Origin: Thermoproteota archaeon | GTDB taxonomy: Archaea > Korarchaeota > Korarchaeia > Korarchaeales > Korarchaeaceae | Assembly: GCA_027491915.1 (NCBI GenBank) | Contig: JAOZGC010000002.1 | Span: forward strand, 384,001-448,000 | Length of the DNA stretch: 64,000 nt | Reading direction: 5' to 3' | Part shown: positions 16,380 to 53,915 of the stretch, piece by piece | Layout of the letters: each line of letters opens with the position of its first letter | Position numbering within the stretch: the stretch's first letter is position 1 | Made by a program: the position numbers and the translations under genes | The notes under the pieces: generated by a model | Seen by the model: the letters and a program-made list of their open reading frames with translations, nothing else | Databases searched by the model: none | Told to the model about the DNA's origin: nothing

Positions 16380-17423
16380 TCACACCCCACCCATGACGTA
16401 GGCCATGATGGCCTTCTGCACGTGGAGCCTGTTCTCCGCCTCGTCGAAGACCACGCTGTGGGGGCCGTCTATCACGTCGTCGGTGACCTCCATGCCCCTG
16501 TCAGCCGGCAGGCAGTGCAGGTATATCACGTCTCCCTTGGCCCTATCCAGCTTCTCCTGGGTGGTTATCCAGTCCTTGTGCTTGTTCATCAGGTCTATCA
16601 TCCCCCTCTCGTCCACCTCCGGCACCTTGGGCGGCATGAACTCCAGGGAGCCCCAGCTCTTCGGGTAGACCACGTCCGCCCCCTCGAAGGCCTCGTCCAT
16701 GTCGTACGAGATCTCAAAGCTCCCGCCGTACCTGTCCGCGTTATCCTTGGCCATCTCAATTATGTCCGGGTGGAGCTCGAGCCCCCGCGGGTGGGCCAGC
16801 GTCACGTCAGCCCCGAACCTGGTGAATATGAGGACGGCGCTCTGGGGGACGGCCACCGGCTTAACGCCCGCGCTGTAGGCCCAGCTGACCACCACCTTCT
16901 TCCCCTCGAGCCTGCCCTTGTACTCCATGACCGTCATGAGGTCGGCCATCGCCTGGTTCGGGTGATACACGTCGTCCTCCATGTTTATCACGGGTATGGA
17001 CGCCCAGTGGGCGAACTCCCTCACTATCCTGTCCCCCTTCCCGTAGATCCACTGGACCGGCTCCCCGTAGATCCTTATGGCTATGGCGTCCCCGTACCTG
17101 CTGAGGACTCGGGCCACGTCCGAGATCCTCTCGGTCTTGTAGGCTATCTCTTCCCCCTTGAGCGCCGGGGCGTAGACGGACTTCGGGGTCAGGTATATGC
17201 CCTGTCCCCCCAGCTGGAAGATCCCGGTCTGGAAGCTGTTCCTGGTCCTGAGGCTGCTGTTGTAGAAGAGCATGTATAGGGTCCTGCCCTCCAGCAGCCT
17301 GTGCGGAATTCTCTGCCTCTGCTTCGCCTTTAAATCGAAGGCCAGCTTCAGCACGGCCTCCAACTCTTCCCTACTCCACTCCTGGGTGGAGATGAAGTCC
17401 CTTCCCCTGAGATTCACCACCAA
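16380..17423 (-). CDS. Carbamoyltransferase, YgeW/AOTCase-like knotted subgroup
   Basis: SSLRTRNSF, HPNQAMAD, SWAYS..KPVAVPQS, YPKSW, HCLPADRG, EAENR; lacks the OTCase DxxxSMG motif. Confidence 0.85.
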   Translation of the reverse strand: MVVNLRGRDFISTQEWSREELEAVLKLAFDLKAKQRQRIPHRLLEGRTLYMLFYNSSLRTRNSFQTGIFQLGGQGIYLTPKSVYAPALKGEEIAYKTERISDVARVLSRYGDAIAIRIYGEPVQWIYGKGDRIVREFAHWASIPVINMEDDVYHPNQAMADLMTVMEYKGRLEGKKVVVSWAYSAGVKPVAVPQSAVLIFTRFGADVTLAHPRGLELHPDIIEMAKDNADRYGGSFEISYDMDEAFEGADVVYPKSWGSLEFMPPKVPEVDERGMIDLMNKHKDWITTQEKLDRAKGDVIYLHCLPADRGMEVTDDVIDGPHSVVFDEAENRLHVQKAIMAYVMGGV

Positions 17424-19102: not shown

Positions 19103-19273
19103 GTCTAGCGAGCCGGTCGGCGGATCCCCGGCCGATCTGCCCCCGAGATCGGGTCGGCGGATCGGAGCCCCGGCCCAGTCCCGGGAGGCCGGGCCCCAGG
19201 AGGTCAGATTAATATGTTGTCCTCCCCGGGCTCACGAGTCTCGGCGGCGACCGCCGGATCAGGAGGGGTAAGC

Positions 19274-20860
19274 TTGTCGGTTGGACGGGAGGAATCCGCG
19301 TCGGTCGGCGGCCATCCCGGCGAGGCGGGGTTGGCCGGGCCCCCGCTGGTCAGGATGGAGGGGATAGTGAAGAGGTTCCCTGGGGTCCTGGCCAACGACC
19401 ACGTCGACTTCGAGCTGGTGCCCGGGGAGGTGCACGCCCTGCTGGGGGAGAACGGGGCGGGCAAGACCACCCTCATGAACATCCTGTTCGGCATATACAC
19501 CCCGGACGAGGGCAGGATATACGTCAGGGGGGAGGAGGTATGGATAGGCTCCCCGAGGGACGCCATAAGGCTGGGGATAGGGATGGTCCATCAGCACTTC
19601 CTTCTGGTCGACAGGCACACCGTGGCTGAGAACGTAGCCCTCGGGTTCGCCGAGAGCCAGCTCTCCCCCCTGAGGGAGGTCAGGCGGAGGATATCTGAGT
19701 TCTCCGAGAGGTACGGCCTGAAGGTGGACCCGGACGCCTACGTGTGGCAGCTCTCCGCCGGGGAGCAGCAGAGGGTGGAGATAATCAAGGCCCTCTACGC
19801 CGGGGCGGACATCCTGATACTGGACGAGCCCACGTCCGTCCTCACCCCCCAGGAGACCAGGGAGCTCTTCGAGGTGCTGCGCAGGATGAGGGACGAGGGG
19901 AAGGGCGTGATCTTCATAACCCACAAGCTGGAGGAGGTCATGGCCGTGGCGGACAGGGTCACCGTCCTGCGCAGGGGGAAGGTGATCGGGACAGTCCCGG
20001 CCTCCGAGACGGACGAGAGGAGCCTGGCCAGGATGATGGTCGGCAGGGAGGTACTCTTCAGGCTGGAGAAGGGTGAGGTCCAGGTGGGTCCCCCGGCCCT
20101 CGAGGTCAGGGACCTCTGGGTGGTTGGGGACAGGGGGCTGGACGCCGTCAGGGGGGTCACCATGACGGTGAGGAGGGGGGAGATATACGGGATAGCCGGG
20201 GTCGCGGGGAACGGCCAGAGGGAGCTGATAGAGGCCATAGCCGGGCTGAGGAAGGTTAAGTCTGGCTCCATCCACATATCCGGGGTGGACGTGACCAACA
20301 AGAGCCCGAAGGTCATCCACGGGATGGGGGTGGCCCACGTGCCCGAGGAGAGGCTCAGGCACGGCATAGTCCCGAACCTGAGCGTGGCCGAGAACCTGGT
20401 CCTGAAGGACTACGACAGGGAGCCCTTCTCGAGGGGGGTCCTCCTGAACTACGAGGCCATAGAGAGGAACGCGGAGGACCTGGTGGAGAGGTTCGAGATA
20501 GTGACCCCGAGCATCAGGACCCCCGCGAAGCTCCTCTCGGGGGGGAACATACAGAGGCTGATATGCGCCAGGGAGTTCTCCAGGGAACCCAAGGTGATCC
20601 TGGCCGCCCACCCGACTTACGGCCTGGACGTCGGGGCCACCGAGTCCATCAGGAGGCTCCTGCTGGAGGAGAGGTCCAGGGGGGCCGCCGTCCTCCTGGT
20701 CTCCGAGGATCTGGAGGAGGTGCTGAACCTGAGCGACAGGGTCGGCGTTATGTACGGGGGGGAGATCGTCGGTGAGTTCAGGCCAGGGGAGGTCGACATG
20801 GAGGAGGTGGGCCTAATGATGGCCGGGGTCAGGAGGGGCGGATCCCAGGCGGCGGGGTGA
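19274..20860 (+). CDS. Nucleoside-type ABC transporter ATP-binding protein (tandem NBD)
   Basis: GENGAGKTT, GMVHQHF, LSAGEQQR, LILDEP, LSGGNIQR; TTG at 19274 follows SD AGGAGGGG. Confidence 0.92.
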   Translation: MSVGREESASVGGHPGEAGLAGPPLVRMEGIVKRFPGVLANDHVDFELVPGEVHALLGENGAGKTTLMNILFGIYTPDEGRIYVRGEEVWIGSPRDAIRLGIGMVHQHFLLVDRHTVAENVALGFAESQLSPLREVRRRISEFSERYGLKVDPDAYVWQLSAGEQQRVEIIKALYAGADILILDEPTSVLTPQETRELFEVLRRMRDEGKGVIFITHKLEEVMAVADRVTVLRRGKVIGTVPASETDERSLARMMVGREVLFRLEKGEVQVGPPALEVRDLWVVGDRGLDAVRGVTMTVRRGEIYGIAGVAGNGQRELIEAIAGLRKVKSGSIHISGVDVTNKSPKVIHGMGVAHVPEERLRHGIVPNLSVAENLVLKDYDREPFSRGVLLNYEAIERNAEDLVERFEIVTPSIRTPAKLLSGGNIQRLICAREFSREPKVILAAHPTYGLDVGATESIRRLLLEERSRGAAVLLVSEDLEEVLNLSDRVGVMYGGEIVGEFRPGEVDMEEVGLMMAGVRRGGSQAAG

Positions 20861-20864
20861 CCTC

Positions 20865-21941
20865 ATGAGGCTGGTGGTGGAGAAGAGGACCGTCGCGTCC
20901 AGGAGGTTCTCGGTCGCCGTCAGGGTTGCTTCGGTGGCCGCGGCCCTGCTCACCATGGCCGCCGTCTTCGCCGGGTACGGCCTGGACCCGGTAAGGGTGT
21001 ACGGCGGCATATTCTCCAAGGCCTTCGGAACGCCGGTGGGACTCGCCGAGACCGTGGTCAGGATGATCCCCCTCCTGCTGATAAGCTCCGGGCTCGCCCT
21101 GGTGTTCAAGGCCCAGTTCTGGAATATAGGGGCGGAGGGCCAGTTCCTGGCCGGGGCCATGGCCGCCTTCGTGGTGGCCACCTCCCTCCCGGACCTGCCC
21201 CCCCACCTGCTGATCCCCCTCATGTTCGCCGTCGGGTTCCTGGCCGGGGCCGCCTGGGGGGTGCCGACCGCCTTCATGAGGGCGAAGCTGAACGTCAACG
21301 AGGTGATAACCACCCTGATGTTCACCTACATACTCGACTGGATCTTCCAGTGGACCCTCTCCGGCCCGTGGAAGGCCAGGGAGACCGTCGGCCAGCTGAC
21401 CTACTCGGGTTTCAGGCACTCCGTCGTCATAACCGAGAACGCCTGGCTCCCCCTGATAGAGGGGACCAGGGTCCACTGGCCCACCCTCGCCCTGGCCGTG
21501 GCGGCCGCGATCGCGGCCTACCTCGTCGTCTCCAGGACCACCTTCGGGTACGAGCTCAGGGTCGTCGGGGACAACCCGGAGGCGGCCCGGGCGGCCGGAA
21601 TAAGCTACTCCAAGGTGGTCTCGGTGGGCATGATCATAAGCGGCGGGCTGGCGGGCATGGCGGGGGTCGGGGAACTGGCGGGGATCCAGCACAGGTTCAC
21701 GGCCGAGTTCCTGACGGGCTACGGGTACGATGCGATAATAACGGCTTGGCTCGGTGGGATGAACCCCGTCGGGCTCCTGGTGGCCAACTTCCTCTTGGGG
21801 GGCCTGGTGGTCGGGGGGGACTACCTCCAGATCAAGTTCAGGCTCCCGGGGGGGATGATCGACATGTTCAACGGCACGATCCTGTTCTTCGTGCTGGCCT
21901 TCGAGTTCCTCCTCAGGTACAGGATCAGGATAAGGAGGTGA
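20865..21941 (+). CDS. Nucleoside ABC transporter permease 1
   Basis: WNIGAEGQ, VNEVITTLM, TTFGYELRVVGDNPEAARAAGI. Confidence 0.9.
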   Translation: MRLVVEKRTVASRRFSVAVRVASVAAALLTMAAVFAGYGLDPVRVYGGIFSKAFGTPVGLAETVVRMIPLLLISSGLALVFKAQFWNIGAEGQFLAGAMAAFVVATSLPDLPPHLLIPLMFAVGFLAGAAWGVPTAFMRAKLNVNEVITTLMFTYILDWIFQWTLSGPWKARETVGQLTYSGFRHSVVITENAWLPLIEGTRVHWPTLALAVAAAIAAYLVVSRTTFGYELRVVGDNPEAARAAGISYSKVVSVGMIISGGLAGMAGVGELAGIQHRFTAEFLTGYGYDAIITAWLGGMNPVGLLVANFLLGGLVVGGDYLQIKFRLPGGMIDMFNGTILFFVLAFEFLLRYRIRIRR

Positions 21942-21949
21942 CCCCGTAG

Positions 21950-22885
21950 ATGCAGGCGGAGCTGATATCCAGCGTCCTCTGGATCGGGTTGAGGTCCGGC
22001 ACCCCCCTCCTGCTGGCCACCGTGGGGGAGATATACGCCGAGAGGTCCGGGATCCTCAACCTCGGGATAGAGGGGATGATGATAATAGGGGCCTTCACCG
22101 CCTTCGCGGTGGGCCAGGCGACCTCCAGCCCTTGGCTGGCCATGGCGGCCGCCGCCGCGGCCGGGCTGGCCGCCTCCCTAATACACGCCTTCATCAGCAT
22201 CCACCTCAGGGGGAACCAGGTGGTCTCGGGGCTGGCCCTGACCATGTTCGGCCTCGGGCTCACCAGCGTGGCCGGCGGGACCTTCGTCGGCGCGGCCCTC
22301 CCCAGGGAGGCCAGGATAATCCCATCCCCCCTGAGCGAGGAGCTGGCCGCCATCCCCGTGATCGGGAAGGCCCTGTTCGACCAGGATCCCTTTCTGTATC
22401 TCAGCATCCTGATATCGGTCCTGCTGTGGTTCGTCCTCTACAAGACGAAGTTGGGCATAGTGATCAGGTCCGTGGGTGAGAATCCGGCCGCCGCCGACGC
22501 CCTCGGGGTCAACGTATACGCGGTCAGGTACGCGTGCACGGCGCTGGGGGGGGCCCTGGCCGGCATGGCCGGATCATACATCACCCTCTCCCTGAGGCCC
22601 GGGTGGGTAGAGAACATCACGGCCGGCAGGGGTTGGATAGCGGTGGCCCTGACGATCTTCGCCCTCTGGGACCCCCTCAAGGCCATAGCCGGGTCCTACC
22701 TATTCGGGATAGTGGAGGCCGGGACCTACAACCTCCAACCCCTGGGTTTCAGTCAGTGGCTCCTCAACGCCATACCTTACGTCCTCACGGTCGTCATACT
22801 AGTTGCGGGCGCCACCGAAACCATGAGAAAGAAGATGGGAGCTCCAGCGGCCCTCGGCGTCCCTTACGTTAGGGGAGAGAAGTGA
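21950..22885 (+). CDS. Nucleoside ABC transporter permease 2
   Basis: ERSGILNLGIEGMM, NQVVSG, GENPAAADALGVNV, GRGWIAVA, APAALGVPY. Confidence 0.9.
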   Translation: MQAELISSVLWIGLRSGTPLLLATVGEIYAERSGILNLGIEGMMIIGAFTAFAVGQATSSPWLAMAAAAAAGLAASLIHAFISIHLRGNQVVSGLALTMFGLGLTSVAGGTFVGAALPREARIIPSPLSEELAAIPVIGKALFDQDPFLYLSILISVLLWFVLYKTKLGIVIRSVGENPAAADALGVNVYAVRYACTALGGALAGMAGSYITLSLRPGWVENITAGRGWIAVALTIFALWDPLKAIAGSYLFGIVEAGTYNLQPLGFSQWLLNAIPYVLTVVILVAGATETMRKKMGAPAALGVPYVRGEK

Positions 22886-22998
22886 TGGACGAGACGGGAC
22901 CGCTCCTCAAAGATCCTCAAGTATAGTTCACGCATTTGACTCAGACGATCTCCGCCCCGCGACCTGACGCCGAGCCCTGAGTGTCACCTTGAGAAACG

Positions 22999-23029
22999 TT
23001 TATTGGTATTCCCCTCCCGGGAGAATACC
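22999..23029 (+). promoter_or_regulatory. Internal promoter of the binding-protein gene with an inverted repeat
   Basis: TTTATTGG followed by GGTATTC-N11-GAATACC (23005-23029). Confidence 0.45.
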
Positions 23030-23048
23030 CCATCGAGGGTGAGACAGA

Positions 23049-24344
23049 ATGAGCTCGACCCAGTGGGCGGCGATAGCCCTCATCCTGTTCGTGGTGGGGG
23101 TGGGCATAGGCTACATGGCGGCCCCCAAGGGGGCCGCGCCGGCCCAGTGCCCCCCGTGCGAGTGCCCGCCGTGCCAGCCGCAGGCCGCCCCCCAGTATAA
23201 GGCGGCTTTCATATACATAGGGCCCATAGGGGACTACGGCTGGACCCACGAGCACGAGATGGCCAGGAGGGCCGTCCAGGAGATGTTCCCGTGGCTCAAC
23301 ACCACCTACATAGAGTCCGTCCCCCCCGACCAGGCCGAGGGCAAGATGGAGGAGCTGATCTCCGAGGGGTACAACATCATATTCACCACCAGCTTCGACT
23401 ACATGGATCCGACCATAAACGAGGCCAAGAAGCACTCTGACGTGTTCTTCTTCCACTGCTCCGGATACAAGCGCTGGAAGAACTCCGGCACCTACTTCGC
23501 GGACTTCTATCAGCTCTACTACCTAAACGGCCTCATGGCCGGCGCCCTGACCCGCACCGGGAAGGTCGGCTACGTGGCCGCCTTCACCATACCGGAGGTC
23601 GTCAGGCACATCAACGCCTTCGCCATAGGGGTCCACGAGGTCAACCCGGACGCCGTGGTCCTGGTGAGGGAGATAGGGGCCTGGTACAACCCGGACCTGG
23701 CGGCGGACGCGGCCGAGTCCCTGATCTCAGAGGGAGTCGACGTCCTGGCCTTCACCGAGGACTCCCCGACCGTACTGCAGGTGGCCCAGCAGCACCACGA
23801 CAGGGGTGAGAGGGTGCTGGCCTTCGGCCACTACAGCCCGATGAAGCAGTACGGGCCGGACGTGTGCGTCAGCGGTCAGATAGCGCACTGGGACAGGATA
23901 CTGGAGGACATACTGGCCAAGATATACTCCGGAGTCTACACCACCCAGAACCTGGAGAACGTCGACTACTGGTGGAAGCTAAAGGAGGGCGCCGTCGAGC
24001 TCGGGTGCGCCGACAACGAGCCCATCAACCCGATATTCATAGACGAGCTCAGGCAGGTCCACGTCAACGAGACCGTCCTCCTTCCCAACGGGACGGTGCT
24101 GGAGAACCCCGACGTCTACAAGCTGGTCATGGCCAGGATGATACAGATGGGCGTGGTCTGGCACCCGGACACCGGCACCTACACCTTCACCAACGACGAG
24201 TGCTTCGACCCGTTCACCGGTCCACTCTACGACAACCAGGGTCACCTGATGGCCCCGGAGGGTCAGAGGCTCGGGCACGACGCCCTGTGGACCATGCAGT
24301 GGTGGTACCAGAACGTGCAGGGACCGCCCCTAGGGGGAGGATGA
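23049..24344 (+). CDS. BMP/PnrA-family substrate-binding protein (purine/nucleoside)
   Basis: N-terminal TM anchor; GPIGDYGWT, IFTTSFDYM, HCSGYK, IPEVVRHINAFAIG. Confidence 0.9.
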   Translation: MSSTQWAAIALILFVVGVGIGYMAAPKGAAPAQCPPCECPPCQPQAAPQYKAAFIYIGPIGDYGWTHEHEMARRAVQEMFPWLNTTYIESVPPDQAEGKMEELISEGYNIIFTTSFDYMDPTINEAKKHSDVFFFHCSGYKRWKNSGTYFADFYQLYYLNGLMAGALTRTGKVGYVAAFTIPEVVRHINAFAIGVHEVNPDAVVLVREIGAWYNPDLAADAAESLISEGVDVLAFTEDSPTVLQVAQQHHDRGERVLAFGHYSPMKQYGPDVCVSGQIAHWDRILEDILAKIYSGVYTTQNLENVDYWWKLKEGAVELGCADNEPINPIFIDELRQVHVNETVLLPNGTVLENPDVYKLVMARMIQMGVVWHPDTGTYTFTNDECFDPFTGPLYDNQGHLMAPEGQRLGHDALWTMQWWYQNVQGPPLGGG

Positions 24345-24370: not shown

Positions 24371-24539
24371 GGTTAACACGTTATCCGCTTCGGAGTTCGA
24401 TCCCCTCGAGCGACCCCTCTCGGCCTCAAGTTAGACCTGAGAACCTTGGTAGGTCTGAATTCGTTGATCCGGAAAGTTTTATTTGAACCGCCCTCGCATT
24501 CTGCGGTTTCCGCCCGATCAGACCGAGCGGGGTGTCCGG

Positions 24540-25037
24540 ATGCCTGCTGTCGATAGGATACTCGTGGTCGATCCCGAGAGGTGCACGGGGTGCAGGATCT
24601 GCGAGGCGGCCTGCTCCTACCAGCACTACGGGGAGTTCAACCCCCGCAGGTCCTACATCACCGTGCTGAAGAGGGAGTCCGACGGTCTCTTCGTCCCCAT
24701 GGTCTGCCAGCACTGCGCCAAGCCGCTCTGCGTGGAGGCCTGCCCGACGGGGGCCCTCTACCAGTATGGGAGCGCCGTCTTCCTGGACAAGTCGAAGTGC
24801 ATAGAGTGCAGGCAGTGCGTCAACGCCTGCCCCTTCGGGGGGGTGGGCATAGACCCCGTCACCTTGCAGGTGGTGAAGTGCGACCTCTGCGGCGGGGACC
24901 CCCAGTGCGCCAGGAGGTGCCCCACCGGGGCGATATCCTACGTCAGGGCCGACCTGGTAGGGTACCGCAGGAAGCTCGAGGGGGCCGAGCGCCTGTCGAG
25001 GCTGACGAGCCTGATAGTCCCCTCGGGAGGTGGGTGA
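24540..25037 (+). CDS. 4x[4Fe-4S] small subunit 1 (DmsB/HydN/Wor-S type)
   Basis: CTGCRICEAAC, CQHCAKPLCVEACP, CIECRQCVNACP, KCDLCGGDPQCARRCP; overlaps the next gene by 8 nt. Confidence 0.9.
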   Translation: MPAVDRILVVDPERCTGCRICEAACSYQHYGEFNPRRSYITVLKRESDGLFVPMVCQHCAKPLCVEACPTGALYQYGSAVFLDKSKCIECRQCVNACPFGGVGIDPVTLQVVKCDLCGGDPQCARRCPTGAISYVRADLVGYRRKLEGAERLSRLTSLIVPSGGG

Positions 25038-26940
25038 GTTGAGGTACGGGGGGTACGCCGGCAGGTACATCAGGGTCGACCTGAGCAGCGGCTCCATCGG
25101 GGTGCTGGAGACCCCGGAGTCCCTGGCCAGGGACTACGTGGGCGGCCTGGGTTTCGGGGTGAGGCTGCTCTGGGACGAGGTGGACGAGCGGACCGACCCC
25201 CTGGGGCCGGACAACAGGCTGGTTATAGCCACCGGCCCGCTCACTGGAACCCTCTTCCCGGCCGCCGGGCGCTACCAGATGGCGGCCAAGTCCCCCCTAA
25301 CCGGCATCTGGGGGCAGTCCAACTCCGGCGGGTTCTTCGGCCCGGAGCTGAAGTTCGCGGGGTACGACATGGTGGTGATCCAGGGCAGGTCCGAGAGGCC
25401 TGTCTACCTGGTGATAGACGACGACGAGGTCAGGCTGGCCGACGCGTCCCACGTCTGGGGCAAGACCACCTTCGAGACCACGGACATCGTCAGGGAGGAC
25501 CTGGGAGACGAGACCTTCAAGGTGATGGCCATAGGTCCGGCGGGCGAGAACCTGGTCAGATTCGCGGCCGTCATAAACGACGCCGGCAACGCCGGCGGCA
25601 GGACCGGCATGGGGGCCGTGATGGGATCCAAGAAGCTCAAGGCCATAGCAGTCAGGGGGTCGAGGGGGGTCAGGGTGGCCGACGACGGGGCCTTCATGGA
25701 GGTGGTGGACGAGGCCTACGAGAAGCTCCAGGTCGAGTGGGGGGAGGCGGTTAGGGAGACCCTGACTAAGTACGGCACCCCAAACCTGGTGGAGGCCATA
25801 AACGCCATAGGCAGGATGCCCGTCAAGAACCACTGGACGGGGTACTGGGAGAGGGCCGACGAGATAGGCGGGGTGGCCATAAGGGAGAGGTACAGGGTCA
25901 AGCAGGGGTCCTGCTACGGATGCCTGGTCCAGTGCAAGTACTACGTGGAGGTCAGGGAGGGACCCTTCGCCGGCAGGTACAAGGGACCCGAGTACGAGGC
26001 CATAGTCTCGTTCGGCTCGTCCCTCCTGATAGACGACCTGCCGGCCATATTCCGCGCCAACCACCTGGCCGACGCCCTCGGGATGGACTCAATATCCCTG
26101 GGGATGACCATAGCCTGGGCCATGGAGTCCTGGGAGAGGGGCCTCCTGACGGCGGAGGACACCGGCGGTCTGGACCTCTCGTGGGGGAACGCGGACTCGG
26201 TGATCGAGCTCATCGAGAAGACGGCCTACAGGGAGGGATTCGGCGGCGTCATAGCGGAGGGAAGCAGGAGGGCCTCCCAGATCATAGGTAGGGGAACCGA
26301 GAAGTACGCCATGCACGTGAAGGGGCTCGAGATATCGGCGCAGGACGGCAGGGCCCACCAGAGCTCCGGCCTGACCCACGCCACCGCCGCCAGGGGGGCG
26401 GACCACCTGACCTCCCTGTCCTGCCTGGAGGAGAGGGGGTACGAGCGGGTGGCCGCCGAGAGGTACGGGGAGGACAAGGTCCGGGAGCTGACCGATCCCC
26501 TGGAGACCAAATACAAGGGGTGGCTGGTCAAGGACCTGGAGGACCTGTACGCCATGGGGAACTCCCTCATAATCTGCTGGTACGAGGTGGGCTGGCCCCC
26601 GGTCTTCTACTTCGACGACATGGCCAGGGCCCTGGCCGCGGCCACCGGGATGGAGGAGTACCGAGATCCAAGGGCGATAAGGATAGCCGCCGAGAGGATA
26701 GTCACCCTGAGGAGGATGTTCAACGTGAGGGAGGGACTCAGGAGGAAGGACGACACCCTGCCCGAGAGGTTCCTCAGGGAGCCCATGCCGACGGGCCCGG
26801 CCAGGGGGAACGTGTGCAGGCTGGACGAGATGCTCGACGACTACTACAGGGCCAGGGGCTGCGATCCGGAGACCGGCGTGCCCACCGACGAAACCCTGAG
26901 GAGGCTGGGGCTGGGAGACCTGGCCGGGAGGTGGAGGTGA
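25030..26940 (+). CDS. AOR-family tungstopterin oxidoreductase large subunit, paralog A
   Basis: KSPLTG, IGPAGENL, GRTGMGAVMGSK, CYGCLVQC, GPEYE, QDGR, RGADH. Confidence 0.92.
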   Translation: MGELRYGGYAGRYIRVDLSSGSIGVLETPESLARDYVGGLGFGVRLLWDEVDERTDPLGPDNRLVIATGPLTGTLFPAAGRYQMAAKSPLTGIWGQSNSGGFFGPELKFAGYDMVVIQGRSERPVYLVIDDDEVRLADASHVWGKTTFETTDIVREDLGDETFKVMAIGPAGENLVRFAAVINDAGNAGGRTGMGAVMGSKKLKAIAVRGSRGVRVADDGAFMEVVDEAYEKLQVEWGEAVRETLTKYGTPNLVEAINAIGRMPVKNHWTGYWERADEIGGVAIRERYRVKQGSCYGCLVQCKYYVEVREGPFAGRYKGPEYEAIVSFGSSLLIDDLPAIFRANHLADALGMDSISLGMTIAWAMESWERGLLTAEDTGGLDLSWGNADSVIELIEKTAYREGFGGVIAEGSRRASQIIGRGTEKYAMHVKGLEISAQDGRAHQSSGLTHATAARGADHLTSLSCLEERGYERVAAERYGEDKVRELTDPLETKYKGWLVKDLEDLYAMGNSLIICWYEVGWPPVFYFDDMARALAAATGMEEYRDPRAIRIAAERIVTLRRMFNVREGLRRKDDTLPERFLREPMPTGPARGNVCRLDEMLDDYYRARGCDPETGVPTDETLRRLGLGDLAGRWR

Positions 26941-26945: not shown

Positions 26946-28130
26946 ATGGCCGATCTGTCGGTCGAGGTGGCCGGGATAAGGTTCAGGAACCCCGTCCTGA
27001 CGGCGGCCGGGCCGCCGAGCCAGAACGGCTCGGCCCTCCTGGCGGCGGCCAGGGCGGGGGCCGGCGGGCTGGTGGCCAAGACCATCAGCGTGGAGCCCGC
27101 GAAGGTCCCCAGGCCGACCATGGCCGCGCTGGACAGGGGGATGACCGACTTCTCCATCTACTACGCCCTTGGGGGCAGGATCGTCCGGAGGACCAGGACG
27201 AAGATGTTCACCCCGAGGGGTCTGCTGAACATAGAGCTGTGGTCCGACCTGCCCTACCAGAGGTGGCTGGACGTGGAGTACAAGGTGGCCAAGAGCTCCG
27301 GCCTCCCACTGATAGCCAGCGTAGGCTACACCGCCGACGACCTGAGGTTCCTCGGCCCCAAGGTCCAGGAGGCCGGGGTAGACGGCATAGAGTTCTCCCT
27401 CCACTACGTCGGCATAGACTACAAGCCCCTCCTGGAGATAGCCAAGGCACTGAGGGAGTCGGTGGACGTCCCGATATTCGCCAAGCTCAGCCCCCACATC
27501 CTGGGACTCACGGAGTTCGCCAAGGAGCTGGAGAGGATAGGCGTGGACGGGATAGTGGCCGTGAACTCCCTCGGCCCCACCCTGATGATAGACATAGAGA
27601 CCGGGAGACCGCTCCTCGGCGGGAAGATGGGTGAGGGGTGGCTCTCCGGCCCGGCGATAAAGCCGCTGGCCCTCAGGGTGGTGGCGGAGGTGGCCAAGAA
27701 CACGAGCCTCCCCGTCATAGGGGTCGGGGGAGTGACCTCCGGGGCGGACGCCATAGAGTTCTTCATGGCTGGGGCGTCGGCGGTGGAGATATGCACGGGC
27801 GCCATACTGGAGGGCCCGGGTATATACGGGCGGGTGGCCAGGGAGATAGGGGAGTGGCTCGACGAGCACGGGTACGACTCGGTGGAGGACGTGCGGGGGA
27901 TGGCGCTTAAGTACCTGCCGGAGGACTACCAGTACGAGGTAAGGAACCCGGGGGTAGATCCGGACCTCTGCACGGCCTGCGGCCTGTGCGAGGAGGTCTG
28001 CCGCTACGACGCGATAAAGGTGGTCGAGGTGGACGGAAGGAAGACCGCCTCCGTCAACCAGTACGCCTGCTACGGCTGCGGGCTGTGCACGACCGTCTGC
28101 CCCACGAGGGCGGTCAGGTTCGTGGACTGA
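26946..28130 (+). CDS. PreA/dihydroorotate-dehydrogenase-family FMN protein with C-terminal 2x[4Fe-4S]
   Basis: NPVLTAAGP, VAKT, LNIELWSD, AKLSP, LSGPAIKP, GVGGV, CTACGLC..C, CYGCGLC..CP. Confidence 0.88.
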   Translation: MADLSVEVAGIRFRNPVLTAAGPPSQNGSALLAAARAGAGGLVAKTISVEPAKVPRPTMAALDRGMTDFSIYYALGGRIVRRTRTKMFTPRGLLNIELWSDLPYQRWLDVEYKVAKSSGLPLIASVGYTADDLRFLGPKVQEAGVDGIEFSLHYVGIDYKPLLEIAKALRESVDVPIFAKLSPHILGLTEFAKELERIGVDGIVAVNSLGPTLMIDIETGRPLLGGKMGEGWLSGPAIKPLALRVVAEVAKNTSLPVIGVGGVTSGADAIEFFMAGASAVEICTGAILEGPGIYGRVAREIGEWLDEHGYDSVEDVRGMALKYLPEDYQYEVRNPGVDPDLCTACGLCEEVCRYDAIKVVEVDGRKTASVNQYACYGCGLCTTVCPTRAVRFVD

Positions 28131-28166
28131 TGGTTTGGATAGGTCGGTTCGGGTGGTGTGGTGAGT

Positions 28167-28670
28167 ATGGCGGAGCAGAGGGTCCTTCTGGTCAGCCCTG
28201 AGCTCTGCACCGGGTGCAGGCTCTGCGAGCTGGCCTGCTCCTTCCAACACTTCCGGGAGTTCGCCCCCTCCAGGTCCAGGATAACCGTGGTCCGCAAGGA
28301 GGAGGAGGGCCTGGACATACCCGTGGTGTGTCTCCAGTGCGAGGACGCCCCCTGCGTGGCGGCCTGCCCGACGGGCGCCCTCTGGAAGGAAGATGAGAGC
28401 GGCCTCGTGGCCTACGACTTCGACAGGTGCATAGGGTGCAAGGTCTGCATAACCGCCTGCCCCTTCGGAGGGATAGGGTGGGATCCGAAGAGCGGCAGCG
28501 TCATAAAGTGCGACTGGTGCGGCGGGGATCCCCAGTGCGCCAGGATATGCCCCACCGGGGCGATAAAGTGGGTGAGGGCCGAGGAGGCCGACGCGACCAA
28601 GAGGGACAGGGTGGCCAGGAGGTTCGAGGAGGTATCTCGACTCATAACGGCCGCCAGGGGGGGTGTCTGA
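28167..28670 (+). CDS. 4x[4Fe-4S] small subunit 2
   Basis: CTGCRLCELAC, CLQCEDAPCVAACP, CIGCKVCITACP, KCDWCGGDPQC; paralog of 24540-25037; 8-nt overlap with the next gene. Confidence 0.9.
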   Translation: MAEQRVLLVSPELCTGCRLCELACSFQHFREFAPSRSRITVVRKEEEGLDIPVVCLQCEDAPCVAACPTGALWKEDESGLVAYDFDRCIGCKVCITACPFGGIGWDPKSGSVIKCDWCGGDPQCARICPTGAIKWVRAEEADATKRDRVARRFEEVSRLITAARGGV

Positions 28671-30609
28671 GCTGTCCCGCCCCTACGGGGGATACGCCGG
28701 TAGGATACTGAGGGTCGACCTGTCCTCCGGCAGGGTGTCTACCCAGGACCTCCCCAGGGACTGGGCCAGGCTCTTCATAGGGGGGAGCGGCCTGGCGGCC
28801 AGGATCCTCTGGGAGGAGGTCGGCCCGGGGACGGATCCGCTGGGCCCTGACAACAGGCTCATAGTGGCGACGGGGCCCGTTACCGGAACCGCCTGGCACA
28901 CCTCGGGCAGGTCCGTCATGGTCTCCAAGTCCCCCCTCACCGGAATATGGGCGGAGTCCCACTTCGGGGGCCACTTCGGACCGGAGCTGAAGTACGCCGG
29001 GTTCGACGCCCTGGTGGTGAGCGGTAGATCCCCCAGGCCCGTTTACCTCTGGGTTCACGACGGGACCGCGGAGATAAGGGACGCGTCCGACATGTGGGGC
29101 ATGGACACCTACGAGACCACCGCGGCCGTCAGGGACGACGTGGGATACCCGGCGGCCAAGGTCCTCTCCATAGGCCCCGCCGGGGAGAACCTGGTCAAGT
29201 ACGCGGCCGTGATCACCAACTCCCACGACGCCGCCGGCCGGACCGGCATGGGGGCCGTGATGGGATCCAAGAAGCTCAAGGCCGTGGCGGTCAGGGGGTT
29301 CGGGTCGGTCAGGGTGGCTGACCCGGACAGGTTCTACGAGCTCGCCCTGGAGGCCAGGGACAGGGTCCTGGGCAGCGACCAGGCCATGGAGCTCAGGAGG
29401 TACGGCACCGCCATGCTGGTCGAGGTGAAGCAGGCCATCGGAGAGCTCCCGACCTACAACCACAGGAGCGGCGTCTTCGAGGGGTTCGAGACCATAGGGA
29501 GCCACCACATAAGGAAGAACTACTGGGTGGCGACCAAGGCGTGCTTCGCGTGCAGCCTGGCCTGCAAGAAGAAGAACCTCGTCAGGGGAGGGGAGTTCCG
29601 CGGCCTGTTCTCGGGGGGACCGGAGTACGAGGGTCTCTACGCCTTCGGGAGCAACTGCGGCGTGGACTACTTCCCGGCCGTGTTGAAGATGAACTGGCTC
29701 TGCAACAGATACGGCATAGACGTGATATCGGCCGGGGTGTCCATGTCGTTCCTGATGGAGCTCAGGGAGAGGGGGATCATCGGGGAAGACCTGCTGGGCG
29801 GCGTGGACCTCAGGTGGGGGAACCACGAGGCCATGATAGAGGCCCTGGAGCTGATAGCCAGGAGGGAGGGGGTCGGAGACCTCCTGGCAGAGGGGGTCCG
29901 GGAGATGGCCCGCCGGATAGGGGGAGAGGCGGAGAGGTACGCGATGCACGTCAAGGGGCTCGAGATATCCGGTCAGGATGGGAGGACCCACAGGTCCGCC
30001 GGGCTGACCCACGCGGTGGCCGCCAGGGGGGCGGACCACATGAGGGGACTCGTGACGGTCGACCAGCTCGCCTACAGGGACGTGGCTGCCGAGAGGTTCG
30101 GCGAGGACAAGGCCGACAGGGTGGTGGACGGATACTCCGAGGACTACAAGGCCCTGGCCGTCAAGATGCACGAGGACGCCTACGCCGTCAGGGACTCCCT
30201 CATAGTCTGCTGGTACTCGGTGGGCTGGCCTCCCCTTTTCTGGGTGGACGACTTCTCCAGGGTCCTGAGCGCCGTCACCGGGGAGGAGTCGTGGTCCGAC
30301 GTCGGGGAGGTCTGGCTGGCCGGGGAGAGGATAGTGAACCTGAAGAGGGCCTTCAACGTCAGGGAGGGGATAACCAGGAGGGACGACACCCTGCCCGAGA
30401 GGTTCACGAGGGAGCCCATGCCGGAGGGCCCGGGCAGGGGCCAGGTGGTTGACCTGGAGAGGATGCTGGACGAGTACTACGAGCTGAGGGGATGGGACTT
30501 GGAGACCGGCTTCCCCACCAGGGAGAGGCTGGAGGAGCTCGGCCTGTCTGACGTGGCCGAGGAGCTGGCCGGCGCGGGGAAGCTGGCCCGGGGAGGAGGG
30601 GGGTCCTAG
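28663..30609 (+). CDS. AOR-family tungstopterin oxidoreductase large subunit, paralog B
   Basis: KSPLTG, IGPAGENL, CFACSLAC, GPEYE, QDGR, RGADH. Confidence 0.92.
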   Translation: MSELSRPYGGYAGRILRVDLSSGRVSTQDLPRDWARLFIGGSGLAARILWEEVGPGTDPLGPDNRLIVATGPVTGTAWHTSGRSVMVSKSPLTGIWAESHFGGHFGPELKYAGFDALVVSGRSPRPVYLWVHDGTAEIRDASDMWGMDTYETTAAVRDDVGYPAAKVLSIGPAGENLVKYAAVITNSHDAAGRTGMGAVMGSKKLKAVAVRGFGSVRVADPDRFYELALEARDRVLGSDQAMELRRYGTAMLVEVKQAIGELPTYNHRSGVFEGFETIGSHHIRKNYWVATKACFACSLACKKKNLVRGGEFRGLFSGGPEYEGLYAFGSNCGVDYFPAVLKMNWLCNRYGIDVISAGVSMSFLMELRERGIIGEDLLGGVDLRWGNHEAMIEALELIARREGVGDLLAEGVREMARRIGGEAERYAMHVKGLEISGQDGRTHRSAGLTHAVAARGADHMRGLVTVDQLAYRDVAAERFGEDKADRVVDGYSEDYKALAVKMHEDAYAVRDSLIVCWYSVGWPPLFWVDDFSRVLSAVTGEESWSDVGEVWLAGERIVNLKRAFNVREGITRRDDTLPERFTREPMPEGPGRGQVVDLERMLDEYYELRGWDLETGFPTRERLEELGLSDVAEELAGAGKLARGGGGS

Positions 30610-30625: not shown

Positions 30626-31969
30626 GTGATCAAGGGCGCCACCCTGCTGACGGACTCCCTCATGCTGGGGGGGGCCGGGGTGGCGGTCGAGGCCGGAAGG
30701 GTGACGGCGGTCGCCCTGGACCCCCACCTCCCCGACGCCTCCGAGGTCGTGGACGCCGGCGGCCAGCTCCTGATGCCGGGCGGGGTGGACTGCCACGCCC
30801 ACGTGTACGACCCCGACTACACCCACAGGGAGGACTGGGCCTCCGGCTCCGCCGCCGCGGCGGCCGGCGGGGTGACCACCCTGATAGACATGCCCCTGGT
30901 CCTGACCGTCATGCCGGAGCTGGCCAGGGAGAAGATCCAGGTCGGGGAGAGGGACTCCATGGTGGACTTCTCCCTCCACGCCGGCATGATGGAGACCGAG
31001 GAGCACCTACGCAGGATGCCCGAGCTCGTCGAGATGGGAATAAGGTCGTTCAAGGCCTTCACCACGGCCCCCTTCAGGGTGGGCTACGACTACATAGAGA
31101 GGCTGGCCGCCAGGGCCAGGGACCTGGGAGGGGTGGTCACGGTCCACTCGGAGGACGACGCCGTGATAAGGGAGGCCGAGAGGGAGGTCAGGGAGGTGAA
31201 GGGCAGGAGGGACCCCCTGGCCCACCACGACTCCAGGCCCCCCGAGGCCGAGGCGGCAGCCGTGGCCAGGCTGGTGGCGGCGGCCAGGGCGACCGGGGGG
31301 AGGATCCACGTGGCCCACATGACCACGGCCCAGGGGGTGGGGGAGGTGGCGGCCGCCAAGTCCGAGGGGCTGAGGGTCACCGCCGAGACCTGCCTCCACT
31401 ACCTGGTGTTCACCAAGGCCGACGTGGAGAGGTGGGGCCCGTACCTGAAGATGACCCCTCCCCTCAGGACTTCCTACCACGTCGAGGCCCTCTGGAGGGG
31501 GATAGCCTCCGGGGCCGTGGACGCCGTGGCCACGGACCACGCCCCGGGGACCAGGGAGGAGAAGGAGGTCGGCTGGGAGGACATATGGAGGGCCTGGGGC
31601 GGGATACCCGGGGTGGAGACCCTGGTCCCCGTCACCCTCAGCGAGGGGGTCTGGCGCAGGGGGCTGGACCCCAGGAGGGTGTGCAGGGTGCTGTGCCGGG
31701 GGCCGGCGGAGGCCTTCGGCCTCTACCCGAGGAAGGGTTCCCTGGCCCCCGGGTCGGACGCCGACCTGGTGCTGTTCGATCGGAAGGTTGAGAGGGTCGT
31801 CCGGGCGGCGGACCTCCACTACAAGGTGGGGTGGACCCCCTACGACGGGATCCTGGTCAGGGGCTGGCCCTCCAGGGTCTACGTGAGGGGGGAGCTGGTC
31901 GCCCTCGAGGGGGAGCCCGTCGGCCGACGGGGGCACGGGAGGTTCGTGCCCATGGGGGAGGTGTCGTGA
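30626..31969 (+). CDS. Cyclic amidohydrolase (allantoinase/dihydropyrimidinase-like)
   Basis: DCHAH, AAAGGVTT, SFKAF (carboxy-Lys site), HSED, HVAH, KMTPPLR, TDHAP, AWGGIPG, PRKG...DADL. Confidence 0.9.
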   Translation: MIKGATLLTDSLMLGGAGVAVEAGRVTAVALDPHLPDASEVVDAGGQLLMPGGVDCHAHVYDPDYTHREDWASGSAAAAAGGVTTLIDMPLVLTVMPELAREKIQVGERDSMVDFSLHAGMMETEEHLRRMPELVEMGIRSFKAFTTAPFRVGYDYIERLAARARDLGGVVTVHSEDDAVIREAEREVREVKGRRDPLAHHDSRPPEAEAAAVARLVAAARATGGRIHVAHMTTAQGVGEVAAAKSEGLRVTAETCLHYLVFTKADVERWGPYLKMTPPLRTSYHVEALWRGIASGAVDAVATDHAPGTREEKEVGWEDIWRAWGGIPGVETLVPVTLSEGVWRRGLDPRRVCRVLCRGPAEAFGLYPRKGSLAPGSDADLVLFDRKVERVVRAADLHYKVGWTPYDGILVRGWPSRVYVRGELVALEGEPVGRRGHGRFVPMGEVS

Positions 31970-33876
31970 TGGGATTCAAGGGTTGGGCCGGCAAGGTGAT
32001 CCACGTCGACCTCGGCTCCGGGAGCGTATCGGTGGAGCCTCTGGACGGATCGCTGGCCGCCGAATACCTGGGAGGGACGGGTTTCGCGGCCAGGTGGCTC
32101 TACGACGGGGTCGGTCCTGAGACCGACCCCCTGGGCCCCGACAACCTGCTCATATTCGCCGTCGGCGCCCTGACCGGGACGGCCTTCCCGCAGGCGAGCC
32201 GGCACGTCATAGCCGCCAAGTCCCCCCTGACCGACATATACGGCGAGTCCCACGCCGCCGGCCACTGGGGGGCCGAGCTGAAGTTCGCGGGATACGACGC
32301 CATCGTGTTCAGGGGGAGGTCGCCGAGGCCGGTCTACCTCTGGGTGGAGGACGGGTCGATAGAGCTCAGGGACGCCTCCGACCTGTGGGGCAGGACCACC
32401 TACGAGACCGAGGCCATGATAAGGGAGGAGGCGGGAGATCCCTTCGTCAAGGTCGCCTCCATAGGGCAGGCTGGGGAGAACCTGGTCAGGTTCGCGGGGA
32501 TCTTCAACGACCACGGGAGGGCGGCCGCCAGATCCGGCATAGGGGCGGTGATGGGATCCAAGAGGCTCAAGGCCGTGGCGGTAAGGGGGCACGGCTCGGT
32601 GGAGCTGGCCGACCCCGACAGGTTCATGGAGCTCTTCTTCGACTGGAGGGAGAGGATGCTCTCCCACCCCTTCACCCCGGACAGGGTCAAGTACGGCACC
32701 AACAACCTGGTGGAGCTGATGCAGGCCATAGGGAGGCTCCCGGCCTACAACCACAGGGAGGGGGTGTTCGACGAGTGGGAGAAGGTCTCCGGCGAGAGGA
32801 TAACCAGGGAGTACCTGGTCGCCCCGAAGGCCGACTTCGCGTGCCTCCAGAGGTGCGGGAGGTTCGTCAGGGTCCCCTCCGGCAAGTACGCCATGGTGGG
32901 CAAGGGCCCGGAGTACGAGGGGCTGGACGCCCTCGGCCCCAACGTGGGGAACTCCGACGTCGAGGCCCTCATATACGCCAACCACCTGTGCAACCAGTAC
33001 GGCATGGACGTGATATCCGCCGGGGGCGTCATAGCCTGGGCCATGGAGTCCTGGGAGAGGGGCCTCCTGACGGCGGAGGACACCGGAGGGCTGGAGCTCA
33101 GGTGGGGAGACGGAGACCTGATAGTGCAGCTCGTGGAGATGATAGCCTTCAGGAAGGGTTTCGGGGACCTACTGGCAGAGGGGGTCTACAGGGCCTCCAA
33201 GAAGATCGGCAGGGGAACGGAGAAGTACGCCATGCACGTCAAGAAGATGGAGATAGCTGCGCAGGACGGCAGGGCCCAGAAGTCCATGGGCCTGGCCCAC
33301 GCCACCTCCAACAGGGGGGCGGACCACCTGTACGCCTTCCCGGTGCTGGACGAGGTGGGCTTCGAGAAGGAGATAGTGGAGAGGTTCGGGGAGCGCTACC
33401 TGCCGGAGATGACCGACAGGCTCAATCCGAAGTACAAGGGGATCATGGTGAAGGAGCTGGAGGACTTCTGCGCCGTGGTTGAGGCCGTGGGGGTGTGCAA
33501 GTACGGGACCGTCATACCCCCCGTTTTCTACTACGGAGACCTGGCCGACGCCCTGACGGCCGCCACCGGGGTGACATACGACGAGGCCAGGCTCAGGCTC
33601 ATAGGGGAGAGGATAGTGAACCTGCAGAGGCTGTTCAACGTCAGGGAGGGGATAACCAGGAGGGACGACACCCTGCCCGAGAGGTTCACGAGGGAGCCCA
33701 TGCCCCGGGGACCCTCCAGGGGCCAGGTGGTGGAGCTGGACCAGATGCTGGACGAGTACTACGGGCACAGGGGGTGGGATCCGGAGACCGGGATACCCAC
33801 CAGGGAGAGGCTCGAGGCACTCGGGCTCGGGAGGGAGGCGGAGGAGCTGGCGGCCGCCGGCTACCCCGTCAAGTGA
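31969..33876 (+). CDS. AOR-family tungstopterin oxidoreductase large subunit, paralog C
   Basis: KSPLT, IGQAGENL, DFACLQRC, GPEYE, QDGR, SNRGADH; TGATG coupling to the upstream gene. Confidence 0.92.
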   Translation: MGFKGWAGKVIHVDLGSGSVSVEPLDGSLAAEYLGGTGFAARWLYDGVGPETDPLGPDNLLIFAVGALTGTAFPQASRHVIAAKSPLTDIYGESHAAGHWGAELKFAGYDAIVFRGRSPRPVYLWVEDGSIELRDASDLWGRTTYETEAMIREEAGDPFVKVASIGQAGENLVRFAGIFNDHGRAAARSGIGAVMGSKRLKAVAVRGHGSVELADPDRFMELFFDWRERMLSHPFTPDRVKYGTNNLVELMQAIGRLPAYNHREGVFDEWEKVSGERITREYLVAPKADFACLQRCGRFVRVPSGKYAMVGKGPEYEGLDALGPNVGNSDVEALIYANHLCNQYGMDVISAGGVIAWAMESWERGLLTAEDTGGLELRWGDGDLIVQLVEMIAFRKGFGDLLAEGVYRASKKIGRGTEKYAMHVKKMEIAAQDGRAQKSMGLAHATSNRGADHLYAFPVLDEVGFEKEIVERFGERYLPEMTDRLNPKYKGIMVKELEDFCAVVEAVGVCKYGTVIPPVFYYGDLADALTAATGVTYDEARLRLIGERIVNLQRLFNVREGITRRDDTLPERFTREPMPRGPSRGQVVELDQMLDEYYGHRGWDPETGIPTRERLEALGLGREAEELAAAGYPVK

Positions 33877-53902: not shown

Positions 53903-53915
53903 TCGCCCCCCTCCC

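Follow-up and report, generated by a model that had tools for sequence, protein, structure and literature searches.

A UacX-type flavoprotein, predicted to reduce an oxidized purine, is encoded together with tungsten-type aldehyde oxidoreductases in archaea

What does a flavoprotein of the dihydropyrimidine dehydrogenase (DPD) type reduce when it lacks the catalytic cysteine loop of its relatives, and from where does it obtain electrons? The question is raised by the gene at positions 26946–28130 of the forward strand of a 64,000-nucleotide stretch of a korarchaeal genome (contig JAOZGC010000002.1, positions 384,001–448,000; assembly GCA_027491915.1), the whole of which is called the window here. 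A first-pass annotation of the window treated the gene as a one-off, a PreA-like protein with an altered active site, and suggested that it reduces an oxidized purine with electrons supplied through iron-sulfur relays. The gene is not solitary. Judged by its sequence, it is a new archaeal member of a clade of the dihydroorotate dehydrogenase (DHODH)/DPD superfamily that was described in 2013 as DHase X1 and named UacX in 2025, and the idea of an oxidized-purine substrate is already in print for bacteria. The substrate of the UacX-type protein is probably an oxidized purine, with 2,8-dioxopurine or a closely related compound the likeliest candidate, and the electrons for its reduction would come from ferredoxin or from a module of aldehyde oxidoreductases (AORs). 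The variant that was not found in print is the conserved wiring of UacX to polyferredoxins and a dedicated clade of tungsten-type AORs.

Structure and active site of the UacX-type flavoprotein

The 394-residue-long protein is composed of a TIM barrel binding flavin mononucleotide (FMN) and a C-terminal domain with two [4Fe-4S] motifs (27969–28100; cysteines 342, 345, 348, 352, 375, 378, 381, and 385), which Pfam recognizes as DHO_dh and a pair of Fer4 / 4Fe-4S motifs. There is no domain for flavin adenine dinucleotide (FAD) and NAD(P)H. The AlphaFold2 model, built on 35 relatives, has a pLDDT of 92.1 and a pTM of 0.89; its best Foldseek match is pig DPD (1gte, TMq 0.77), followed by DHODH of type 1B. 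The fold, the FMN motifs, and the C-terminal cluster motifs are shared with PreA, with domains IV–V of pig DPD, and with clostridial PydAc.

The cysteine of the loop of family-1 DHODH and DPD is the general acid/base, and nearby asparagines bind the pyrimidine. In the UacX-type protein, the shortened loop E149-F-S-L-H-Y154 (27390–27407) replaces E-L-N-L-S-C-P-H of DPD. The phmmer alignment sets a 22-residue stretch of pig DPD against EFSL---HY-----VGI----D, with Ser670-Cys671-Pro672 of DPD deleted and the loop shorter by 12 residues. Asn668 of DPD is replaced by serine and Asn736 by histidine; thus, two of the three asparagines that we take, from the DPD literature, to bind the pyrimidine are changed. 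The segment K180-L-S-P-H184 (27483–27497) stands for K-L-T-P-N, N95-I-E-L98 is kept, the FMN motifs VAKTIS and IGVGGV align with those of pig DPD, and 13 extra residues precede LNIEL. The shortened loop, K-L-S-P-H, the retained N-I-E-L and FMN motifs, and the insertion before LNIEL had been pointed out in the first-pass annotation and are present in the translation and in the alignment to pig DPD, with EFSLHY at exactly the position given there. The pair H153/Y154 is the obvious candidate for the acid replacing Cys671. The alignment of the loop is ambiguous: H153 may correspond to His673 of DPD, as phmmer places it, or to Ser670, and either member of the pair could take the role of the cysteine.

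A lineage-specific insertion of 37 residues (59–95; 27120–27230) in front of N-I-E-L is predicted to form a long β-hairpin. In the AlphaFold2 model, DSSP assigns strands to residues 59–75 and 78–95, where the pLDDT is 71–89. The hairpin is present in relatives from the same phylum, from Desulfurococcus, and from some Asgard archaea; it is absent from the Thor-type Asgard, Chloroflexota, and Clostridia members.

No curated NCBIfam cut-off is reached by the protein. The nearest model, the PreA equivalog, scores 198 bits against a cut-off of 335, the type-1 PyrD model pyrD_sub1 scores 189 bits against 270, and all PyrD models remain below their cut-offs. The genome of the organism (1.12 Mb in 4 contigs, 91% complete) contains neither the PreT/GltD-type Fer4_20 domain (PF14691) nor the PyrK iron-sulfur domain (PF10418), which extends to the whole assembly the earlier remark that no PreT or PyrK gene adjoins the flavoprotein gene, and the gene is the only DHO_dh match in it. 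A canonical PyrD of about 300 residues coexists with the UacX-type protein in the sister genus (genomes G312, G314, and G315), in an Asgard archaeon (G003), and in Desulfurococcus (G004). The lack of PreT and PyrK domains and the canonical PyrD of the sister genomes speak against an ordinary uracil/thymine dehydrogenase or DHODH served by a PreT encoded elsewhere, the outcome that the first-pass annotation had set against its own proposal. As an identity for the protein, PreA was rejected because of its score, the deleted catalytic loop, and the missing PF14691; PyrD of type 1B was rejected because of its score, the lack of the cysteine, the missing PF10418, and the coexisting canonical PyrD of relatives.

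A family signature shared by archaea and bacteria

The active-site changes are shared by a family. Loci were collected from species genomes, 300 sampled Clostridia genomes, and the 43 genomes of the organism's own phylum, and 35 sequences from this phylum, Asgard archaea, Chloroflexota, and Clostridia, with 37–80% identity to the query, were aligned. Residues N95, E97, W99, S100, E149, S151, H153, Y154, K180, S182, P183, N207, G210, P211, W232, S234, G235, and all eight cysteines are invariant in all 35. The position of H184 varies and is occupied by F, K, L, or N in some members. The invariance across four phyla indicates that the changes around the active site are not a product of chance or decay; as read from the alignment, they are under strong selection. 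The motifs E-(F/L/I/V)-S-(T/L)-H-Y, N-x-E-L-W-S, K-x-S-P, and N-S-x-G-P occur at aligned positions in all fetched loci. The signature E-x-S-x-H-Y, N-x-E-L-W-S, K-x-S-P, N-S-x-G-P was derived in this analysis and has no published definition.

A word-indexed search gave 4,933 matches; archaeal metagenome bins account for nearly all of the best 120. When 1.84 billion cluster representatives were searched exhaustively, 365 proteins were found at E ≤ 1e-30. The best 150 of the 365 together with the query divide into 27 sequences with S-x-H-Y, 47 with a cysteine in the loop region, and 77 with other cysteine-less loops, such as E-L-V-S-Y or the N-Y-D-W variant. A quick maximum-likelihood tree of 73 sequences (IQ-TREE, quick search only) contains a branch, supported at 97%, that splits all S-x-H-Y sequences from the Cys-loop, VSY, and YDW families. 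The archaeal members group together in this tree with support of 89–94. PreA-like proteins that keep the cysteine loop (from loci L074 and L075, and 11 cluster representatives) make up a clade of their own. The query groups with bacterial proteins encoded in ssnA/xdh/hyuA/ygeY clusters, apart from the PreA and PydA types. The four matches found among longer proteins, which could have represented fused forms of the clade, include none with S-x-H-Y.

At least two more families combine a PreA-like barrel and two [4Fe-4S] motifs with a short loop free of cysteine, each on one well-supported branch (97 and 99). The first has the loop E-L-V-S-Y with K-L-S-A-N (P0143, P0146, P0162, P0168, and others), and the second has N-Y-D-W in place of N-x-E-L-W (P0140, P0159, and others). 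A rare fusion protein of 828 residues (P0121) carries an N-terminal cysteine-less DHO_dh barrel with I-E-L-V-S-Y, a GltD/PreT-like FAD/NAD(P)H part, and C-terminal ferredoxin motifs, a domain order that is the reverse of that in DPD.

Bacterial relatives are encoded beside genes of the 2,8-dioxopurine pathway

Homologues at E ≤ 1e-40 are encoded in 16 of the 300 Clostridia genomes. Fourteen of them directly adjoin genes for an SsnA-like amidohydrolase and for proteins of the xanthine dehydrogenase (XDH) family, with HyuA-like, YgeY-like, YgeX-like, carbamoyltransferase, carbamate kinase, and adenine deaminase genes nearby. These 14 proteins are 35–44% identical to the window protein over the full length and have all of the motifs. 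The remaining two (about 29% identity) keep the cysteine loop and are found in other gene settings. At one Clostridia locus (L074:5571–10655), a PreA-like protein with the cysteine loop, 29% identical to the query, is encoded about 2 kb from an AOR-family gene whose product is 37% identical to AOR3 of the window; this could be a different, bacterial pairing of AOR and PreA-type proteins. In Chloroflexota, the genes run in the order carbamate kinase, two carbamoyltransferases, PALP (a pyridoxal-phosphate enzyme), selenium-dependent XDH (954 bits, cut-off 830), SsnA (441 bits, cut-off 444), and the UacX homologue; nine of the ten Chloroflexota UacX loci are located beside SsnA and XDH-family genes. 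An XDH-family match is thus present in 23 of 24 bacterial UacX loci (Clostridia 14/14, Chloroflexota 9/10) and an AOR in none.

This gene set is known. The accessible portions of three papers describe an uncharacterized DHase X1 clade with hyuA, ygeW, ygeY, ssnA, xdhABC, and yqeA as neighbors (Barba 2013, PMC4016543), the conversion of urate to 2,8-dioxopurine by XdhD and the reduction and opening of 2,8-dioxopurine by YgfK with SsnA (Li 2025, PMC12507026), and the reduction of 2,8-dioxopurine by YgfK under the independent name DOPOR (Liu 2025, bioRxiv 10.1101/2025.04.24.650524). In Clostridioides difficile, YgfK is replaced by a PydA homologue without the FAD domain, which was named UacX and for which ferredoxin was proposed as the electron donor (Li 2025, PMC12507026). 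Neither archaea nor tungsten is mentioned in the portions of these three texts that were accessible. The genes around the bacterial homologues are those of the reductive uric-acid/2,8-dioxopurine pathway; therefore, the window protein belongs to a known and named, biochemically thin family, and the oxidized purine of the first-pass annotation is largely supported by this setting.

The window protein shares with C. difficile UacX and DHase X1 the DHO_dh barrel with two [4Fe-4S] motifs and the lack of a FAD/NAD(P)H domain. HyuA-like, YgeW-like, and YgeY-like proteins are encoded in the window, and SsnA is encoded in the sister genus. By contrast, the host is an archaeon, the hairpin has been added, and presumably co-transcribed AORs and polyferredoxins take the place of the XDH-family neighbors. 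E. coli YgfK (DOPOR) is the proposed functional equivalent, carrying out a reductive dearomatization before SsnA (Li 2025; Liu 2025; accessible portions); however, YgfK has its own NAD(P)H/FAD part, which the UacX-type protein does not.

Archaeal operon with AORs in place of XDH

The flavoprotein gene is the third of a seven-gene operon on the forward strand: polyferredoxin FeS1, AOR1, UacX, polyferredoxin FeS2, AOR2, cyclic amidohydrolase, and AOR3. FeS1 (24483–25037) has 16 cysteines in four [4Fe-4S] motifs and matches Fer4_11 and related Pfam families. Its open reading frame (ORF) starts at TTG; orthologues begin about 19 residues later in the alignment, and translation probably begins with the ATG at 24540. 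FeS1 overlaps by 8 nucleotides with AOR1 (25030–26940; AFOR_N, AFOR_C), which ends 5 nucleotides upstream of the UacX gene. After a gap of 27 nucleotides follows the four-cluster protein FeS2 (28158–28670), 37% identical to E. coli YgfS, so the gene is indeed placed between an AOR and an iron-sulfur subunit, as first noted. FeS2 overlaps by 8 nucleotides with AOR2 (28663–30609), a member of the same AOR clade as AOR1. A 16-nucleotide gap separates AOR2 from the cyclic amidohydrolase (30626–31969), which overlaps by 1 nucleotide with AOR3 (31969–33876). The cyclic amidohydrolase is of the allantoinase/dihydropyrimidinase/hydantoinase-like type, is in the HyuA-like position, and is 32% identical to E. 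coli HyuA; its NCBIfam scores are 330 bits for allantoinase (cut-off 358), 309 for D-hydantoinase (393), and 290 for pyrC_multi (279). The operon structure fits the supply of electrons through iron-sulfur relays that had been suggested. A complex prediction of UacX with FeS1, run without controls, gave scores of 0.00 and 0.00 and says nothing either way.

Further genes suited to such a pathway surround the operon. Upstream are the four genes of an ATP-binding cassette (ABC) transporter with a BMP/PnrA-family binding protein (19214–24344, forward strand; Pfam Bmp), namely the ATPase (19214–20860), two permeases (20865–21941 and 21950–22885), and the binding protein (23049–24344); the same four genes are upstream in loci L002–L004. 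A carbamoyltransferase of the N-acetylornithine/YgeW-like (knotted) group (16380–17423, reverse strand) is 33% identical to E. coli YgeW, scores 302 bits with NF003384 (cut-off 288) and, below the cut-off, 181–186 bits with the YgeW models, and has orthologues in the Asgard, Chloroflexota, and Clostridia UacX loci. A YgeY-like M20 hydrolase (40073–41197, reverse strand), 6 kb downstream and also present in L002, is 32% identical to E. coli YgeY (NF009555, 303 bits; cut-off 321). A carbamate kinase, 47% identical to E. coli YqeA, is encoded elsewhere in the genome.

The sister genus (L002, L003) and L004 have conserved the block, and its core of FeS, AOR, and UacX is also found in Asgard loci L006–L015. 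Additional genes of the Asgard loci encode two carbamoyltransferases, amidohydrolases of the SsnA-like and deaminase-like kinds, and a ThiS/MoaD-like protein; a module of amidohydrolase, FeS, and AOR3 is present there as well. The small ThiS/MoaD-like gene is directly 3′ of UacX in 11 Asgard-type loci (L005–L013, L015, and L024; for example, L012:11195–11482) and in 14 of 30 further Asgard loci; it is absent from that position in the window, and L014 ends inside UacX. Of the 14 archaeal loci with an upstream flank, 13 have an AOR gene immediately upstream of UacX; in L004, two genes intervene. The same placement recurs in 33 of an additional 40 loci, of which 10 come from the own phylum and 30 are the best of a 301-genome Asgard sample. 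Whereas XDH-family genes prevail in the bacterial loci, the 17 archaeal UacX loci contain none, and 16 of them contain an AOR; the exception is the Desulfurococcus locus L037. No publication on this arrangement was found in searches for AOR with SsnA and archaea, for tungsten, purine, and Korarchaeota, and for UacX.

UacX homologues are encoded in 87 of the 301 sampled Asgard genomes. Of the 43 genomes of the own phylum, 11 encode UacX, 11 encode an SsnA above the cut-off, and eight encode both. Whole-genome searches found no XDH-family molybdenum-binding domain in the window genome or in the Asgard genome G003. In the Asgard sample, this domain is present in 59 of 301 genomes, but in only one of the 87 that bear UacX; the associated Fisher p of 5e-9 overstates the case, because the genomes are related and the pattern follows lineages. 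A rule that archaea with UacX never have XDH-family genes was rejected: seven of the 11 UacX-bearing genomes of the own phylum have them on other contigs. The other four, including the window genome, do not, as is the case for 86 of the 87 Asgard genomes.

A dedicated clade of AORs

A quick tree was computed for 45 AOR-family proteins. It unites all 18 cluster AORs in a clade supported at 99% and keeps them separate from 25 further AORs encoded in the same genomes or in related ones. Two additional members of the clade are the AOR of a fourth FeS-AOR pair of the window genome (C4:484379–486782) and one gene of G003. AOR3 is a single orthogroup of the own phylum and Asgard archaea on one branch with a support of 100. 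Within the phylum, orthologues of AOR1 with at least 74% identity occur only in UacX-bearing genomes; a partial match of 69% is in G338, a 72%-complete genome with SsnA and no UacX match.

AOR1 and AOR3 score about 485 bits (AOR1, 485) to the AOR of Pyrococcus furiosus (PfAOR, 1aor), and AOR1–3 score 418–446 bits to the AOR of Aromatoleum aromaticum (8c0z). AOR1 retains equivalents of PfAOR Glu313, His448, and the cluster cysteines. Position 438, equivalent to PfAOR Tyr427, is glutamine in 20/20 clade members and tyrosine in 18 of 24 other AORs. From the equal spacing of 21 residues to the histidine, we take PfAOR Tyr427 to be the counterpart of the active-site Tyr416 of the P. furiosus formaldehyde oxidoreductase (FOR). 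Position 458, equivalent to PfAOR Cys447 and next to the catalytic histidine, is aspartate in 20/20, whereas the other AORs have cysteine in 13 of 24 and aspartate in 1 of 24. The clade also has two small insertions. As in AorAB, the cluster AORs are paired with four-cluster polyferredoxins; unlike in AorABC, the third component is an FMN barrel instead of a FAD/NAD subunit.

Tentatively, the cluster AORs may be tungsten-dependent purine (de)hydroxylases that perform the job of the molybdenum- and selenium-containing XDH family, in the conversion of urate to 2,8-dioxopurine and in feeder hydroxylations, and pass electrons via the polyferredoxins straight to UacX, although we consider this doubtful. 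If it were true, the pathway would be a tungsten-based archaeal version of 2,8-dioxopurine breakdown, with a type of reaction never described for the AOR family.

Two other sets of AOR genes of the organism stand apart from the operon. The fourth AOR of the window (6567–8414) is a classical AOR (660 bits to 1aor) outside the cluster clade; it is followed by a MoaD-family gene (8476–8769) and a radical SAM maturase of the tungsten-cofactor-oxidoreductase type (8805–10094; 284 bits, cut-off 380). Outside the window, the fourth polyferredoxin-AOR pair, whose AOR belongs to the cluster clade, lies beside a divergent Pyr_redox_2 flavoprotein gene (C4:483088–486782), forming a trio like AorABC.

Proposed mechanism and alternatives

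On the basis of fold and cofactor motifs, the missing cysteine loop, clade membership, the invariant motif, and the conserved gene neighborhoods, we infer a substrate, a proton donor, an electron donor, and an order of steps. Electrons would enter through the two C-terminal [4Fe-4S] clusters and pass to the FMN in the TIM barrel; their source may be ferredoxin or, more likely here, the presumably co-transcribed module of polyferredoxins and AORs. The reduced FMN would transfer a hydride to C6 of the oxidized purine, which is the same C5=C6 reduction as that of uracil by DPD, and the H153/Y154 pair, standing in for the missing cysteine, would protonate C5. Hydride transfer to C6 of a 2-oxo-pyrimidine ring is presumably common to DPD, PydAc, and the UacX-type protein. 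Like uracil, 2,8-dioxopurine carries a C6-H adjacent to C5, and formation of the ureidomethyl-hydantoin described in the accessible text of Li 2025 requires that C6 becomes CH2 and C5 becomes CH; the reaction would therefore be that of DPD carried out on a purine. The reduced ring would then be opened by amidohydrolases, and the ureido groups would be removed by the carbamoyltransferase, with carbamate kinase yielding ATP, and by the YgeY-like hydrolase.

A purine substrate is supported by the PreA architecture without the FAD/NAD(P)H part, the SsnA and XDH contexts of the bacterial members, the common motifs, the branch with 97% support, and the joint occurrence of UacX and SsnA in eight genomes of the own phylum. 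Within the window, the BMP-type transporter, the HyuA-like amidohydrolase, the YgeW-like carbamoyltransferase, and the YgeY-like hydrolase point in the same direction, as does the carbamate kinase elsewhere in the genome.

Several observations weigh against this assignment. The accessible text of Li 2025 (PMC12507026) reports that reduction by YgfK is detectable only when coupled to SsnA, and it treats UacX as a predicted reductase, with an assay method described and no assay result given. The identification of the window protein with UacX goes through Clostridia genomes with the same gene neighborhood and not through the named C. difficile protein. When profiles were compared, the family and E. 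coli YgfK aligned only in the ferredoxin motif (hhalign probability 75%, 43 columns) and nowhere in the barrel; the signature is therefore not tied to 2,8-dioxopurine through an enzyme of proven activity. The window genome has no SsnA above the cut-off (the best match, at C4:91269–92540, reaches 242 bits against 444), and neither an XDH-family gene nor a YgeX-like lyase was found in it, so that the 91%-complete assembly lacks three of the eight enzymes of the bacterial pathway. The genes that remain, encoding a reductase, a cyclic amidohydrolase, an M20 hydrolase, and a carbamoyltransferase, would also fit a three-step route of the pyrimidine type. The absence of SsnA and YgeX may mean that the genes are in the missing 9%, that the cyclic amidohydrolase opens the ring, or that the small genome uses a shortened or different route. 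Because of this absence, the substrate assignment is held at probable, and a pyrimidine route is weighed below.

The link to the AORs suggests another role for the protein. AorC is the FAD subunit of the bacterial AorABC. The flavoprotein could similarly be an electron-transfer or diaphorase subunit without a substrate of its own, completing a three-part complex with the polyferredoxin and the AOR, and its FMN would hand electrons from aldehyde oxidation to a diffusible acceptor. The regular position of an AOR directly upstream, the 5- and 8-nucleotide junctions that couple the genes, and the equivalents of PfAOR Glu313 and His448 in AOR1 are in keeping with this role. However, the same clade with the same pocket residues occurs beside SsnA and XDH genes and without an AOR in 24/24 bacterial loci, a mere carrier needs no invariant N95, E97, W99, S151, H153, and Y154 around its flavin, and the window protein is not homologous to FAD/NAD-binding subunits. 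A pure carrier function is therefore improbable.

A ferredoxin-dependent dihydropyrimidine dehydrogenase, such as clostridial PydAc, would start the reductive breakdown of uracil or thymine. The amidohydrolase would then act as dihydropyrimidinase, the M20 enzyme or the carbamoyltransferase would remove the carbamoyl group, and the AORs would oxidize end products of the malonate-semialdehyde type; we consider this route improbable. A genome that lacks SsnA, XDH, and YgeX while encoding the four enzymes named above suits this route, and the aminotransferase of the window (55748–57205) could turn a β-amino acid into an aldehyde, an ordinary substrate of AORs. Nevertheless, the catalytic cysteine loop is deleted, two of the three asparagines assumed to hold the pyrimidine in DPD are replaced, the PreA-like proteins with the cysteine loop form a separate clade, and sister-genus orthologues with 80% identity share their cluster with a genuine SsnA (553 bits at L002:437–1753, about 8 kb from UacX on the same contig).

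That the protein is the DHODH of the organism is very improbable: it is the only DHO_dh protein of a genome in which no canonical pyrD was found and which encodes an orotidine monophosphate decarboxylase (C4:78878–79471), a second carbamoyltransferase (C1:1206–2099), and a second cyclic amidohydrolase (C4:628711–630021), but it has neither a catalytic cysteine nor a serine base, fails all PyrD models, lacks a PF10418 partner, and coexists with canonical PyrD in the five relatives named above, and PyrD may simply be missing from the assembly.

The route to which the UacX-type protein is assigned here, the anaerobic breakdown of purines by reduction of 2,8-dioxopurine, was worked out in 2025 for bacteria only and depends there on selenium- and molybdenum-containing hydroxylases. 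The predicted ring-reducing enzyme of this route is widespread in archaea, where it is firmly tied to tungsten-type AORs and polyferredoxins. Should these AORs act on purines, AOR chemistry would extend from aldehydes to N-heterocycles, and purine fermentation would have a tungsten-based, possibly ancient form. If they only feed electrons, the operon would be a compact module coupling the oxidation of aldehydes to the reduction of a ring. Either way, the invariant His/Tyr pair is a clear target for mutagenesis aimed at protonation by a cysteine-less barrel of the DPD type.

Other genes of the window

The aminotransferase at 55748–57205 belongs to class III. Genes for the interconversion of purine nucleotides lie together at 52442–55622, 20 kb from the cluster; they encode an inosine monophosphate (IMP) dehydrogenase, whose 474 bits fall slightly short of the cut-off of 481.5, and the two subunits of guanosine monophosphate (GMP) synthase. 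At 1877–3518, the divergent genes for LarE (182 bits, cut-off 150) and LarB (197 bits, cut-off 175) provide functions in the synthesis of the nickel-pincer cofactor. On the reverse strand at 12696–15432, two long ORFs of 455 and 526 residues overlap by about 210 nucleotides, and both encode β-helix/NosD-like repeats; a frameshift or an assembly error may have divided a single surface protein into this pair.

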